Positions 11,100-24,955 of a DNA stretch of 32,000 bases are shown piece by piece. Position 1 is the first letter of the stretch. Every line of letters begins with the position of its first letter. This DNA is from an uncultured Chloroflexia bacterium (lineage in GTDB: Bacteria > Chloroflexota > Ktedonobacteria > Ktedonobacterales > JADMIN01), in NCBI GenBank assembly GCA_963718915.1, contig CAVRAI010000004.1, positions 930,001 through 962,000 of the forward strand, given 5' to 3'. Position numbers and translations under genes: made by a program. The notes beneath the pieces are model-generated. The model did no database searches and had not been told where the DNA came from. It was given only the letters and a program-made list of their open reading frames with translations.

Positions 11100-11873
11100 A
11101 TGGAAGAAACAACACTGCAGACCCAGAAGTCTTGGGATGAAATCTCAAAAGGCTTGCAGGAACCCTTCAACCCAGCAGATGTGGATTTCCGTGTGCAGGG
11201 CAGGGTGAACGAGCAGACCGGGCGCGCACAAGTCGTAGCCTATATTGATGCTCGTATGGTGCAGGATCGGCTCGATCAGGTGGTTGGCGCTGGTAACTGG
11301 TCATTCGATTGGGAGCCGCTTGTCATTGACAAGGGCGAAATTATGGTGACCAAAGGCATCCTCACCATCAACGGCGTCTCTAAGGCGGATGCAGGGACTG
11401 CCAGTAACTTCGAGCAATCGCTAGGGGCGGTCTCTCACTGCTTCAAGCGCGCTGCCGTCCATTGGGGAATCGGACGCTATCTGTATGACCTGCCGATGAA
11501 TTGGGTGCAGGTCGAAAAGAACGGGCGGATTTCAGATCAGCTTCTACGCGAGCTGAGGTCGAAACTGCCAATGCCTGAAGAAAAGGCTTCTTCGGATACT
11601 GTCCAGCGTCGCCGCTCGATACCAGCGTCCCGTGTCAGCCCCGTGGCTGCGCAGTCAGCACCCGCAGCGCCCACTCCCACACCTGTTGCCACGACTTCGC
11701 CAGCCAAGGGGACGGATGAGCCAGTCGCCAGCGAGCAGCAGTTGGTGAGCATCCGCAAGCTATGTGTGGCGCTTGGCAGGCCTGAGCCTGATAGCTCGCT
11801 CACCTATGCGGAGGCGCGGCAGTTGATCTCGCAGCTTAGCACCGAGTATCAGCGCTCCCGGCGTGCCAGCTAA
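11100..11873 (+). CDS. Rad52/Rad22 (Sak/DdrA-like) single-strand annealing protein with P/A linker and small C-terminal helical domain
   Basis: 257 aa with GAAGGGAG RBS. VVAYIDARMVQDRLDQVVGAGNWSFDW and CFKRAAVHWGIGRYLYDLP are hallmarks of bacterial/phage Rad52-family proteins. Confidence 0.75.
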   Translation: MEETTLQTQKSWDEISKGLQEPFNPADVDFRVQGRVNEQTGRAQVVAYIDARMVQDRLDQVVGAGNWSFDWEPLVIDKGEIMVTKGILTINGVSKADAGTASNFEQSLGAVSHCFKRAAVHWGIGRYLYDLPMNWVQVEKNGRISDQLLRELRSKLPMPEEKASSDTVQRRRSIPASRVSPVAAQSAPAAPTPTPVATTSPAKGTDEPVASEQQLVSIRKLCVALGRPEPDSSLTYAEARQLISQLSTEYQRSRRAS

Positions 11874-21786: not shown

Positions 21787-22251
21787 ATGGCACGCACAAT
21801 TGGACTGGTCGCGGCCTCGAAGCGTCGACGTGGAGGCATTGCCCGCGCGCACGAGCAGTTCGACCCGTCGCCCGTGTTTCGCCGTGCCCGCGACTTCTGT
21901 GATCGCTCATATAGCGAGTGGTATGTTTTGAGTACGGTGTACCTGCTGGCGCTGCCACAGCAGGTGGTCGGGGCCGATGAGCCAGCGCTCTATATGTTGA
22001 GCGCGGCAGAGCGGTTGGCATGGGCTGAGGCGGTCGCCGGACAGTTGCGCGCGCGTGTTGGCCGGAGCGCTGAACCACTCACCTTTGCCCTTTATGGCAG
22101 CCAGATGTATTCCGAGCTTATGATGCGTGTGGCGCCTGATCTCGTGTTCGAGGCGCCCTTGAGCGGCATGTCATTCGTCGAGCGACTGCACTGGTATGAT
22201 GATCGGCTGCGTACCCGGCCACGTGTCCTCGCGACCCCTTCACGCTCGTAG
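21787..22251 (+). CDS. conserved hypothetical protein (DUF6884-like)
   Basis: 154 aa with a GGAGGTG RBS. The pattern IGLVAASKRR...PSPVFRRARDF...WYVLST...LSAAERLAWAEAV...FALYGSQMYSEL...EAPLSGMSFVERLHWY resembles DUF6884 from memory only. Confidence 0.5.
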   Translation: MARTIGLVAASKRRRGGIARAHEQFDPSPVFRRARDFCDRSYSEWYVLSTVYLLALPQQVVGADEPALYMLSAAERLAWAEAVAGQLRARVGRSAEPLTFALYGSQMYSELMMRVAPDLVFEAPLSGMSFVERLHWYDDRLRTRPRVLATPSRS

Positions 22252-22287: not shown

Positions 22288-22896
22288 TTATTGCGCAGCT
22301 GTTATCTCCCGCTTCGACTCTCGATTAGCCTGCGAAGAAGCATGTCGGGTGACACCCGTGAGAAGCACAGTCACTACCTGCCGTGCCCAGTCTTTCGCCT
22401 GAATCGCACGATCACTGCGGCTCCATTGCATACCCGCGCCAAAGATTGCCCAACTCATGATCGACGCTACGGCATCCGGTGGCATGTCGGCCCACTGGTC
22501 GTGATGAAGCCAGTTGAGAAGATACACATAAAGTTCTTCCTGTACCTTGGCCTCGATTGGTGGATTTAGGTTACTGGCAGATGGAGCGCAGTGCCCATGA
22601 AAATTGCCCATAAAATCGCAGACGGTCACGACCAGAAGAGGGAGCTTGTTGGCCGAAAATGTCGATGAATTTCCTACCCGCTTCTCTACCTCCTCTCGGA
22701 ATGTTTCGCGAACCAGATAATCCATGAGCGCATACTTGTCTTCGAAATGAGCGTAAAAAGTTGCCCGGTTGAGTGTCGCACGCTCAGCAATATCTTGCAC
22801 ACTGATACTCTGGAAGTTCTTCTCTGCCATCAGGGAGACAAGCGCTTCTTGCAATAGCTTACGGGTGCGTTTCACTCGCGGATCAGCCTCGTTCAT
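22288..22896 (-). CDS. TetR/AcrR family transcriptional regulator
   Basis: 202 aa. N-terminal HTH: RTRKLLQEALVSLMAEKNFQSISVQDIAERATLNRATFYAHFEDKY. Confidence 0.9.
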   Translation of the reverse strand: MNEADPRVKRTRKLLQEALVSLMAEKNFQSISVQDIAERATLNRATFYAHFEDKYALMDYLVRETFREEVEKRVGNSSTFSANKLPLLVVTVCDFMGNFHGHCAPSASNLNPPIEAKVQEELYVYLLNWLHHDQWADMPPDAVASIMSWAIFGAGMQWSRSDRAIQAKDWARQVVTVLLTGVTRHASSQANRESKREITAAQ

Positions 22897-23006
22897 GCGT
22901 TACCTCATCCAGAGTAAATCGACATTTTCGCCGCAGTGTTGGTTAGACAACGAAACGCCAGATTTGCGGATTGCTTTCATGAAATGCAGACACTAGTATT
23001 GTACTC

Positions 23007-23034
23007 GACAACAGTTAATTAGACAACAGTTGTC
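23007..23034. promoter_or_regulatory. candidate TetR operator: direct repeat GACAACAGTT x2, the second forming the perfect palindrome GACAAC-A-GTTGTC
   Basis: gacaacagtt at 23007-23016 and gacaacagttgtc at 23022-23034, in the divergent tetR/doxX intergenic region. Confidence 0.45.
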
Positions 23035-23086
23035 GTTAATCGCTTGACAGTAGGCGCGAGGCGCGCCGATATTTTGATCGAGGAGC

Positions 23087-23467
23087 ATGGCATTTATGTC
23101 CGTAGTGTTGTGGATTATTCAGGTGTTATTGTCATTGGCGTTTCTCATGGCAGGGTTCATGAAATTGACGCAGCCGATTGCCACCTTGAACAAGCGTATG
23201 GCGTGGACTGCGGCGGTTTCGCCAGGGTTTGTGCGCTTCATCGGCCTGGCCGAGCTATTGGGTGGGATTGGGCTGATACTGCCCATGATCACTGGCATAC
23301 TTCCCGGACTGACGGTTGCCGCCGCCATAGGCCTGTCCATCGTGATGGTGAGCGCGGCGATATTCCACCTGACGCGGCATGAGGCATCGAATGTACTTGG
23401 CAATGTTGTGCTGCTGATCCTGGCGCTTGTCGTGGTTGTTGGGCGGCTGGTGGTTGTTCCGGTGTAA
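23087..23467 (+). CDS. DoxX-family membrane protein
   Basis: 126 aa with 4 TM segments and LLSLAFLMAGFMKL, typical of DoxX. GAGGAG ends 1 nt before ATG 23087 and 10 nt before ATG 23096, so 23096 may be the true start. Confidence 0.8.
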   Translation: MAFMSVVLWIIQVLLSLAFLMAGFMKLTQPIATLNKRMAWTAAVSPGFVRFIGLAELLGGIGLILPMITGILPGLTVAAAIGLSIVMVSAAIFHLTRHEASNVLGNVVLLILALVVVVGRLVVVPV

Positions 23468-23484
23468 CGATCTCTATCTGGCAG

Positions 23485-23523
23485 GGCAGGCGGCGCCAGA
23501 TCGTCTGCCTTTATTCATTTTTT
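23485..23523 (+). terminator. rho-independent terminator after doxX
   Basis: GGCAGGCG (23485-23492) pairs with CGTCTGCC (23502-23509) at 7/8 positions around a 9-nt loop, followed by TTTATTCATTTTTT. Confidence 0.6.
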
Positions 23524-23568: not shown

Positions 23569-23597
23569 TTGGCAACTCACCCCTAGCCAGTTAGAAT
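23569..23597 (+). promoter_or_regulatory. near-consensus sigma-70 promoter TTGGCA-17-TAGAAT for the ParA-like operon
   Basis: TTGGCA at 23569-23574, a 17-nt spacer, and TAGAAT at 23592-23597. It sits about 55 nt upstream of ATG 23653, which has GAAAGGGA 7 nt upstream. Confidence 0.5.
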
Positions 23598-23652
23598 ACC
23601 TTCGCCTGTGGTTACGGGATGGTTCTCGCGCCACAGCGAAAGGGACATATCC

Positions 23653-24513
23653 ATGCCTGTTGTGACGAGCATCATCAACCTCAAGGGTGGGGTTGGCAAA
23701 ACGACGATAACTCTCGCGTTGGCCCACTTCCTGGCAATCGAGCACCAGAAGCGTGTGCTGGTGATTGATCTTGACCCGCAGACGAACGCGACGGTGAGTC
23801 TGATTCCCGAGCTCGAGTGGAAAGCTCGCGATGAATCAGGTCGCACACTTTTCCAGCTTTTCGCCGATCTGGTCAAAGGCACCAAGCGTTTTCACGCCGA
23901 CGAAGCGATCGTGCGCGACGTCTCGAATATCGGCGGCGGCGTGCCCGGACTTGACCTTCTGCCCTCCAGCCTGGGCCTAATCAAGATTCAGGATCGCGTC
24001 ACCCAGTTGACCGACTTCGAGCATTTTTCACGGGGGCCGATCTACGGCCTGCGTGATGCGCTTGGCGATTTCCTCCCATACTATGACCACGTGCTGATCG
24101 ATTGCCCACCGTCGCTTGGCATAGTCACGCTCAACGGACTGGCCATCTCGAATACATATGTGATTCCCGTCGTGCCCGATATTCTCTCGGTGCTTGGCAT
24201 TCCGCCGATACTCGACCGTATCGATCACTTCGCTTCATCCACGCGGCACAATATCCGTGCGCTTGGCATTGTCATCTCCAAGATTCGTACTCAGACAATT
24301 CTGCACAACGAGATGGTGCAGCGCCTGCGTGATGACTTTCTCGACCGGCGTTTTCCGCTGGTCTTCGATACGATGATCCCCGAATCCACCAGAATCGCAG
24401 AGGCTGCCGATGTAATGGCCCCAGTTCATACGCTCCAGCAGAAGTATGGAGGCGGATCATATGAGTATTTATCGGAATTGACGAGGGAGTATCTGACCCA
24501 TGTCGCGCGGTAA
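23653..24513 (+). CDS. ParA/MinD-family (Soj-like) P-loop ATPase, orphan
   Basis: The ORF opens at GTG 23608, but an RBS precedes ATG 23653. Deviant Walker A with signature Lys (INLKGGVGKTT), VLVIDLDPQTNAT, HVLIDCPPSLG. 286 aa. Confidence 0.9.
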   Translation: MPVVTSIINLKGGVGKTTITLALAHFLAIEHQKRVLVIDLDPQTNATVSLIPELEWKARDESGRTLFQLFADLVKGTKRFHADEAIVRDVSNIGGGVPGLDLLPSSLGLIKIQDRVTQLTDFEHFSRGPIYGLRDALGDFLPYYDHVLIDCPPSLGIVTLNGLAISNTYVIPVVPDILSVLGIPPILDRIDHFASSTRHNIRALGIVISKIRTQTILHNEMVQRLRDDFLDRRFPLVFDTMIPESTRIAEAADVMAPVHTLQQKYGGGSYEYLSELTREYLTHVAR

Positions 24514-24955
24514 GCCGACTCCAGGTCGCGACGATGCCGAGGCTGCCGCCAGGCTGCTACGGGAGTTGGCTGAGCGGGCGGAACGCGATCCCGCCTTCGG
24601 CATTCAGCTTGCCGAGGCTGTACGCTCTAGTGGCCTGCTCGATACCACATCTACCACATCGCCACAGCCATCAGCACCAACACGCAAAAAGCCTGCGAAT
24701 GGCGCAAAACGTCCAACAACTACGGCCGCTGATCTCCCTGACCCGTTCCAAGTGCTACGCAAGCATGGCGAGGACGCCTTGCGCGCCCAGCTAACGCAGT
24801 TGGATATTGCGTCACTACGCCAGATTGTCCGTGCGCATCGGCTCGACCCCGCGCGTATTTCCGCCCGTTGGACCGCAACCGACCGCGTGATAGCTCTGAT
24901 TGTGGATCAGGTGCGTGCGCGGGCCAACCACGGACGCGCCTTCGAGCACATATAA
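24500..24955 (+). CDS. small ParA-coupled protein: basic N-terminal peptide, disordered S/T/P/K linker, helical C-terminal domain (unknown family)
   Basis: 151 aa. ATG 24500 overlaps the ParA-like 3' end by 14 nt, with GAGGGAG 10 nt upstream. Codon usage matches the neighbours. No ParB-type motifs seen. Confidence 0.6.
   Translation: MSRGKPTPGRDDAEAAARLLRELAERAERDPAFGIQLAEAVRSSGLLDTTSTTSPQPSAPTRKKPANGAKRPTTTAADLPDPFQVLRKHGEDALRAQLTQLDIASLRQIVRAHRLDPARISARWTATDRVIALIVDQVRARANHGRAFEHI

Follow-up and report, generated by a model that had tools for sequence, protein, structure and literature searches.

Our analysis shows that an uncultured bacterium of the Ktedonobacterales encodes, within the 32-kb stretch of its DNA analysed here (the window), a ParA/MinD-family ATPase together with a small protein of a previously unnamed family, and that across bacterial phyla the pair is coupled and inherited together. 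We hold with moderate confidence that the pair consists of an ATPase and a small adaptor dedicated to it, vertically inherited as a core-chromosomal system in uncultured Ktedonobacterales. ATPases of the ParA/MinD type arrange cellular components that range from chromosomes and plasmids to organelles and protein machines, and the role of each ATPase is set by its partner protein; what is new here is an unnamed partner family that matches no domain and whose linkage to one specific clade of ParAs is strict in at least 10 phyla. We found no account of this ATPase-partner pair in literature searches.

The module consists of the ATPase gene (23653-24513, 286 aa from an ATG start) and the partner gene (24500-24955, 151 aa), both on the plus strand and overlapping by 14 nt, and a Shine-Dalgarno-like GAGGGAG (24483-24489, plus strand) lies inside the 3′ end of the ATPase gene, 10 nt ahead of the partner ATG, in keeping with the translational coupling claimed in the preliminary description. 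Its 5′ boundary is a terminator-like hairpin with a T-run (23483-23521, plus strand; an 11-pair stem with six G-C pairs and the tail TATTCATTTT), which closes an upstream DoxX-like gene. A promoter-like TTGGCA-17 nt-TAGAAT (23569-23597, plus strand) matches the consensus at 10 of 12 positions; locus L003 keeps both hexamers (−35 and −10) as well as the upstream AAAAAGGCCCCTTGGC, and L001 and L002 keep them in part. Just 5′ of the ATPase ribosome-binding site (AAGGGA, 23640-23645), a candidate 5′-UTR hairpin (CTGTGG...CCACAG, 23603-23638, plus strand) has 10 predicted pairs, seven of them with compensatory change among four sequences, which weakly supports it; no Rfam family matched. On the other side lies a convergent gene for a 447-aa protein, its end (24960) 4 nt past the partner stop. 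The autonomy earlier ascribed to the pair was thus borne out, as was the claim that no parS-like repeat array accompanies it, a repeat search of the window having returned only short two-copy matches of 10-19 nt and no array. These observations support the pair as an autonomous, translationally coupled two-gene module.

All three motifs earlier read from the 286-aa ORF (KGGVGKTT, DLDPQ, and LIDCPPS) were found, and the protein belongs to the ParA/MinD superfamily, with the deviant Walker A signature lysine, the Walker A′ aspartates, and the Walker B aspartate present. It matched Pfam AAA_31 (E = 8e-36; 124 bits, cut-off 27) and CbiA (E = 2e-18; 67 bits, cut-off 25.4), as well as the PHROG family phrog_164, "ParA-like partition protein" (E = 8e-48). 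The closest solved structures are chromosomal Soj proteins, from Helicobacter pylori (6iub) and Thermus thermophilus (1wcv), at E values of 5e-24 to 8e-23, and these share the same Walker A lysine, Walker A′, and Walker B residues. Soj R189 was reportedly found by Hester and Lutkenhaus in 2007 to be needed for non-specific DNA binding; in the alignment to the Soj structures, the window ATPase has an arginine that we take to be its counterpart, and an arginine at this position is retained in 36 of 43 partner-linked ParAs. K11, K16, D39, D41, and D150 are invariant in all 43, and among many contigs of uncultured Ktedonobacterales the ATPase sequences share 77-84% identity. The ATPase is intact and under strong constraint. 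It falls below the NCBIfam cut-offs for ParA_partition (72.8 vs. 180), partition_RepA (81.8 vs. 348), and SopA (48.6 vs. 725), and also below that of the MinD equivalog minD_bact (44.5 vs. 212.9). Its C-terminus (...ELTREYLTHVAR) shows no obvious amphipathic helix by eye, and its match to PDC-M28B in PADLOC-DB 2.0 is confined to the P-loop (residues 8-41).

The partner constitutes a new, previously unnamed family with a conserved three-part architecture. Conservation of the small ORF had been named beforehand as decisive, and it is plain: a word-indexed search yielded 272 homologues and an exhaustive search 539 clusters at 50% identity. An AlphaFold2 model (pLDDT 82) places helices at residues 10-29, 31-44, 82-89, 91-99, 103-112, and 127-149, and the partner models are confident in the folded parts. 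In the window protein a basic N-terminal peptide (aa 1-13) and a helical hairpin (aa 10-44) are followed by a basic, Pro/Ala/Arg-rich disordered linker (aa ∼50-79), which holds the low-confidence stretch of the model (∼50-77), and by a C-terminal domain (aa 80-151). Across 197 homologues the architecture is kept, with net charges of about −1 for the hairpin, +4 for the linker, and +4 for the C-terminal domain, and with a linker of median length 28 aa rich in A, P, R, S, and T. Conserved positions in the C-terminal domain include D81-P82, G90, W124, R129, R141, G145, and F148, and six partner residues (G90, L98, L106, W124, G145, and F148) are invariant; a basic stretch lies ahead of the conserved DPF motif. 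The basic N-terminal peptide emphasised in the preliminary description exists in the window protein but does not hold as a family feature: it is specific to the Ktedonobacterales clade, and although one or more basic residues occur near the N-terminus in 90% of homologues, no motif is conserved there.

Nothing exceeded threshold when the partner and 19 homologues were scanned against Pfam, NCBIfam, PHROG, and PADLOC, nor did a profile search of the PDB or Foldseek give a significant match of any kind, which agrees with the earlier view that the protein lies outside the known centromere-binding families. SAP, Rho_N, and HeH were absent at E ≤ 1 from the Pfam scans of these 20 members, as was MinE. 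The by-eye assignment of the C-terminal domain to SAP/Rho-N-type modules was not confirmed: the only Foldseek match bearing on it, to human DEK as solved in complex with the nucleosome, is sub-threshold and not significant (E values of 4.8-7.9 and probabilities of 0.25-0.41, with an rmsd of 2.7-2.9 across 49 aligned columns). A similarity to HORMA proteins recurred, likewise below threshold. The window partner matched bacHORMA_2 over 30 residues, at positions 21-50 of the profile, with 14.3 bits where the cut-off is 27.3; the best E value among members was 0.005, and PDB entry 6p8o matched at E = 0.009; in PADLOC-DB 2.0 the window partner had no match, and homologues P0162 and P0174 had a weak HORMA match only (E 0.008-0.015). 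With no HORMA structure among the Foldseek matches, this similarity is unexplained and probably does not reflect homology. The longer homologues P0185, P0206, P0197, and P0258 contain no recognisable extra domains, and P0165 and P0207 were low-complexity false positives.

The preliminary description had staked the pairing on adjacency in relatives, and a ParA homologue lies directly upstream of the partner gene in each of the ∼45 loci that could be evaluated, which represent at least 10 bacterial phyla, always on the same strand and at a spacing of −14 to +12 nt. Carriers of the cassette include Rhodococcus and a Lachnospiraceae isolate. The genome scan used one subclade only; the whole-family alignment was too divergent as a locus query. 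Because the two-gene unit recurs in so many phyla, we regard it as a real but uncharacterised system; no third conserved gene was found beside it among the related loci. An N-terminal extension of ∼60-80 aa that weakly matches helix-turn-helix models is usual for the ATPase outside the Ktedonobacterales, and several loci with an extended ParA have 7-8-mers repeated within the promoter region, some of them 31 bp apart; GTGTACA, for example, is present in three copies upstream of an extended ParA. The extension, combined with these operator-like upstream repeats, suggests autoregulation in these relatives.

In uncultured Ktedonobacterales, the pair is core-chromosomal and syntenic, and the ATPase lacks the N-terminal extension. 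The window itself contains metG, a 2-oxoacid dehydrogenase E2 gene, and Lon (the last assigned by synteny with L003), while the related locus L059 has a pentose-phosphate operon and lies on a chromosome-sized record of 5.07 Mb; in CP126532.1, a complete record of 5.07 Mb, 17 kb separate the pair from the end. GC skew over the window was uninformative on an origin. A possible accessory neighbour is a DUF6884 (YaaA-like) gene (21787-22251, plus strand; PF21818, E = 4e-19), which usually precedes the pair in this lineage: it is immediately 5′ of it in L001, L003, and L059/L060 despite differing farther flanks and is absent in L002. In the window, a TetR gene (22288-22896, minus strand) is inserted between it and the pair, and the DoxX-like gene (23087-23467) lies there as well. 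The pair may also offer insight into the cell organisation of the little-studied filamentous Chloroflexota.

If the partner is indeed a dedicated adaptor, the ATP-bound ParA dimer would bind the nucleoid non-specifically, and translational coupling would set a fixed ratio of partner to ParA. The partner would probably self-associate through its N-terminal helical hairpin, while its basic disordered linker and basic helical C-terminal domain would hold the target, either DNA or a protein assembly; because this domain has no significant structural or sequence relative, DNA binding is suggested by its charge alone. By stimulating the ParA ATPase, the partner could then cause the target to be moved or spaced along a ParA gradient. 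No cargo gene or binding site was identifiable in the window. A mechanism resembling that of McdA/McdB or that of type Ib partition, as put forward in the preliminary description, may apply, and the pair is a directly testable two-gene system.

The likeness to McdA/McdB, which with other ParA/MinD cargo-positioning pairs has been reviewed (PMC11407121, PMC10241942), is one of concept, a ParA-type ATPase adjoining a small, partly disordered adaptor without known domains. Unlike McdA/McdB, however, the cassette is mobile, without a conserved set of cargo neighbours, and neither carboxysome genes nor those for another cargo are found nearby, the carboxysome genes being absent from both the window and the related loci. 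Type Ib systems (ParA with ParG or omega) are alike in that a small ATPase is encoded ahead of a small partner that is linked to it translationally and contains a flexible basic stretch, and in the promoter-region repeats of some relatives, but here the partner matches neither the ribbon-helix-helix nor any other known family, repeats are missing from the window, and the family is almost absent from plasmids. The N-terminal helix-turn-helix of type Ia ParAs (P1 ParA and F SopA) recalls the extension of most non-Ktedonobacterales members, whereas the window ATPase has none and scores far below the SopA and RepA cut-offs, and the family's ∼140-aa partner is unrelated to the large type Ia ParB. 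Compared with Soj, the ATPase has insertions and is below the ParA_partition cut-off, its partner is not ParB/Spo0J, and no parS is present; as for MinD/MinE, the ATPase is under the minD_bact cut-off and the partner has no MinE match.

Counted against a housekeeping positioning role is the behaviour of the cassette in other phyla, where it is mobile and found among defence and mobile genes. Outside the Ktedonobacterales the cassette moves as a unit: sponge-associated MAGs with unrelated flanks share a 1.55-kb segment comprising promoter, ParA, and partner at 92-95% identity, and the identity is 74% for the copy in a Dehalococcoidia MAG. By raw count, defence or mobile-gene neighbours occur in ∼11 of 24 annotated contexts. 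They include BREX brxA/brxB with DUF4238; DUF499; PIN, PIN_8, and DUF3800; HsdM and an MmeI-type methylase; a methylase-helicase; and HNH, a serine recombinase, and HATPase_c_3. One plasmid copy, on a replicon with its own repABC, sits beside a Bil-like ubiquitin operon and Fic. We entertain, tentatively, a broader reading in which the cassette is a widespread mobile ParA/MinD class with an unseen partner fold, a self-regulated accessory (given the HTH-like extension and operator repeats) serving defence, exclusion, or the positioning of foreign or island DNA, which became a domesticated core system in the Ktedonobacterales, possibly together with a DNA-binding DUF6884 protein. The pair also offers a mobile form, usually with the HTH-like ParA extension, for comparison with a domesticated chromosomal form.

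The main rival to the adaptor reading takes the pair to be a selfish or defensive two-gene unit (addiction, exclusion, or anti-phage/anti-plasmid), whose extended ATPase would, in most relatives, bind specific DNA and repress its own promoter, with the partner serving as an effector or a modulator. The copy in the Ktedonobacterales would then have been domesticated and have lost the extension. The mobility of the 1.55-kb unit, its patchy spread over at least 10 phyla, the BREX, DUF499, Bil-like, PIN, HsdM, HNH, and similar neighbours, and the upstream repeats where ParA is extended are all in its favour. However, no PADLOC model matched beyond the ParA P-loop, and no nuclease, toxin, or other effector domain was detectable in the partner. 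Ordinary housekeeping genes (for aconitase, PEP carboxylase, FtsZ, and a beta-ketoacyl synthase, and an ORF resembling RNA polymerase beta-prime) make up ∼7 of the 24 contexts, the association with islands is one of raw counts, and the pair in the window's lineage is syntenic, core-chromosomal, and very conserved. We consider this explanation unlikely; if true, it would add a ParA-based entry to the defence catalogue.

A DNA partition system, in which the partner is a new kind of centromere-binding protein for a chromosome region, a chromid-like replicon, or an integrated element, appears to us a doubtful alternative. Its appeal is that it might explain the presence of parA without detectable parB on the chromid-like secondary replicons of Ktedonobacteria (2026 study, PMC13289182), and the type Ib-like layout with a small partner encoded downstream of ParA, the iterated 7-8-mers of extended-ParA relatives (which resemble centromere or operator arrays), the basic linker and C-terminal domain, and the position of the pair near the end of CP126532.1 are consistent with it. 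However, the window lacks repeats and contains core genes, the L059 record is chromosome-sized rather than a 1.5-3.5-Mb secondary replicon, no homologue with a source name comes from a cultured Ktedonobacteria strain, and the ATPase is under the NCBIfam partition cut-offs. We accordingly found no evidence that the pair is the chromid parA of that study. The family is also nearly absent from plasmids (3 of 72,556) and phages (0 of 50,697), with two viral contigs besides, and the annotated plasmid has its own repABC, so a plasmid or phage origin of the family as a whole was rejected. Taken with the extension, the repeats, and the mobility, this near-absence weakens the case for a minimal plasmid partition pair and raises that for defence or addiction. 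Finally, the notion that the 151-aa ORF is no real gene or that its adjacency is fortuitous has nothing but the low-complexity middle section to recommend it and is refuted by the 272 homologues and 539 clusters, the invariant residues, and the adjacency in every evaluable locus.

Within the known superfamily of ParA/MinD-type ATPases, the upstream member of the pair is unremarkable. Its 286-aa ORF lies on the forward strand at 23653–24513, opens with ATG and contains all three motifs first read in it (KGGVGKTT, DLDPQ and LIDCPPS); it matches AAA_31 (E 8e-36), CbiA (2e-18) and PHROG 164, "ParA-like partition protein" (8e-48), and its closest solved structures are the Soj proteins 6iub and 1wcv (E ∼1e-23). 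Identity is 77–84% over many contigs of the window's lineage, and the catalytic residues are invariant in an alignment of 43 distinct partner-linked ParAs. The relatives' ATPases begin at a conserved MPVV preceded by AAGGGA, and none of them uses the alternative GTG start at 23608.

The partner ORF (151 aa, 24500–24955, forward strand) overlaps the ATPase ORF by 14 nt and carries GAGGGAG 10 nt 5′ of its ATG, just as the preliminary description had it. The boundaries cited there as signs of autonomy were also found: a terminator-like hairpin with a T-run (hairpin at 23483–23511, forward strand) borders the pair upstream, a promoter-like TTGGCA-17-TAGAAT (23569–23597, forward strand) precedes the ATPase gene, and a convergent gene terminating 4 nt past the partner stop forms the downstream border. 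The window contains no repeat array. A candidate 5′-UTR hairpin (23603–23638) precedes the ATPase ribosome-binding site and shows compensatory changes across three related loci, a weak support drawn from only four sequences; no Rfam family matched it or the region.

The small ORF proved to be widely conserved, with 272 homologues in a word-indexed search and 539 clusters at 50% identity in an exhaustive HMMER search. The partner is thus a real gene from a conserved family without a name, and a spurious ORF is excluded. Its closest homologues, in MAGs labelled Ktedonobacterales bacterium, are annotated solely as hypothetical proteins and assign the window to uncultured Ktedonobacterales (Chloroflexota); neither Pfam, NCBIfam, PHROGs nor PADLOC recognises the family. 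Identity is 50–85% within the window's lineage; across 20 diverse aligned members, G90, L98, L106, W124, G145 and F148 are invariant and D81-P82, D116, R129 and R141 nearly so. The basic N-terminal peptide MSRGKPTPGR noted earlier is present, but the same alignment confines it to the Ktedonobacterales clade rather than the family. AlphaFold2 models (pLDDT 82) predict a helical hairpin (aa 10–44), a low-confidence linker (∼50–77) and a helical C-terminal domain. This architecture is constant in 197 homologues, in which the hairpin is slightly acidic, the linker (∼28 aa) is rich in A/P/R/S/T with a net charge of +4, and the C-terminal domain also has a net charge of +4. Foldseek returned no PDB match with E <1 for the model, and the sole low-rmsd match was human DEK, as a chain of DEK-nucleosome complexes (probability 0.25–0.41); the C-terminal domain may therefore be SAP-like, as proposed previously. 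Searched as a profile against all PDB sequences, the family yielded no more than a marginal similarity of 30 residues to bacterial HORMA2 (6p8o, E 0.009). The similarity recurs below threshold in 13 of 20 family members, where aa 103–132 (window 24806–24895) align with positions 21–50 of PF18173; Foldseek does not support it, and it probably does not reflect homology.

What is conserved is the pairing of ParA with the partner. The identical 14-nt overlap occurs in three other Ktedonobacterales loci as well as in L059/L060 of the same order, and distant family members likewise have ParA before the partner. The profile of one partner subclade, scanned against one genome for each species, retrieved 41 loci, spanning Gemmatimonadota, Actinobacteriota (including Rhodococcus isolates), Acidobacteriota, Verrucomicrobiota, Armatimonadota, Bacillota, Chloroflexota, Myxococcota, Gammaproteobacteria, Planctomycetota and Deferribacterales. 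In a scripted analysis of ORFs and HMM matches, a ParA homologue (E ≤1e-59) lay directly upstream on the same strand, at gaps of −14 to +12 nt, wherever that DNA was present and intact, so the adjacency queried in the preliminary description held in every evaluable locus; loci without an upstream ParA were contig ends or degraded copies. All-against-all clustering of neighbours revealed no third conserved gene. In the best-supported reading, which we hold at about even odds, the partner is an adaptor dedicated to its ParA-type ATPase and represents a new family; the pair would act on a target by the usual ATP-dependent gradient logic, of which we infer the steps from binding onward.

The module takes two forms. 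Most non-Ktedonobacterales ATPases are 340–380 aa long, with an N-terminal extension of 60–80 aa that gives weak helix-turn-helix matches; the extension is absent from the ATPases of the window and of Rhodococcus. Several extension-bearing loci carry three to four copies of a locus-specific 7–8-mer just 5′ of ParA: GTGTACA in L013, CTGTTGAC in L005 (3914–3964), AATAAACA at 31-bp spacing in L029 (4848–4938), and others in L042 (2353–2409) and L034 (4743–4802). These look like candidate autoregulation operators or a centromere-like site. No such repeats occur in the window.

A selfish or defensive cassette is the main rival, though an unlikely one, and it draws on the mobility of the unit and on its island neighbours. 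A ∼1.55-kb unit (promoter/operator, extension-bearing ParA, partner and ∼100 bp) is 92–95% identical between sponge-associated MAGs with no detectable homology between the flanks (4900–6500 in L013, L015, L017, L019 and L025; 4925–6361 in L021), and a Dehalococcoidia copy retains 74% identity along the same span. The unit has a conserved, operator-like triple GTGTACA upstream and, in its conserved 3′ ∼100 bp, a CCGACG...CGTCGG inverted repeat. Defence or mobile markers accompany ∼11 of ∼24 annotated non-Ktedonobacterales contexts (BREX with DUF4238; DUF499; a Bil-like ubiquitin operon with Fic; PIN, PIN_8 and DUF3800; HsdM and an MmeI-type methylase; HNH, serine recombinase and HATPase_c_3; a methylase-helicase), and ∼7 are plain housekeeping settings. 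The family occurs on 3 of 72,556 plasmids, in none of 50,697 phages and on only two IMG/VR contigs. We give a still lower probability here to DNA partition with the partner as a new centromere-binding protein; the annotated Methylocystis plasmid bearing the cassette has its own repABC. Neither the libraries nor the literature searches gave a match, so the partner family seems not to have been described before, and the same goes for the mobile cassette in which the two genes are strictly linked. In a Fimbriimonadaceae MAG (L041, 3597–6372), ftsZ lies directly 5′ of the pair on the same strand, a single case not repeated in the related L018.

In this lineage the pair is core-chromosomal. Genes carried by the window include metG, those for a 2-oxoacid dehydrogenase E2 and a two-component system, and Lon, the last by synteny with the related locus L003. 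In L059 (CP126532.1 5041926–5062789), a pentose-phosphate operon adjoins the pair in a 5.07-Mb complete record. The pair there is ∼17 kb from the end of the 5,069,607-bp sequence, which could place it near the origin or, on a linear chromosome, near a telomere. Chromid-like replicons of cultured Ktedonobacteria are reported to have parA without recognisable parB (2026 paper, PMC13289182). We found no evidence equating the pair with that system; no cultured strain is among the named partner homologues, and the contexts look chromosomal. In four of five distinct Ktedonobacterales contexts, with differing farther flanks, a DUF6884 gene directly precedes the pair and shares its strand (window 21787–22251; L001 4546–5034; L003 4487–4933; L060 9406–9894). 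DUF6884 is YaaA-like, with a proposed role in DNA binding and repair (PMC11701544); by eye, the CxxxK and LSAxxG motifs of the window copy look degenerate (AASK, LSTVYL). TetR-family-like (minus strand) and DoxX-like membrane-protein genes, named by eye, separate it from the pair in the window (22288–23467) and look like a local insertion, because they are missing at that position in L001, L003 and L060. Among genes that are otherwise housekeeping (metG, E2, and those for a sigma-54 activator and a histidine kinase), the window also has a gene for a Rad52/Rad22-family recombination protein (11100–11873).
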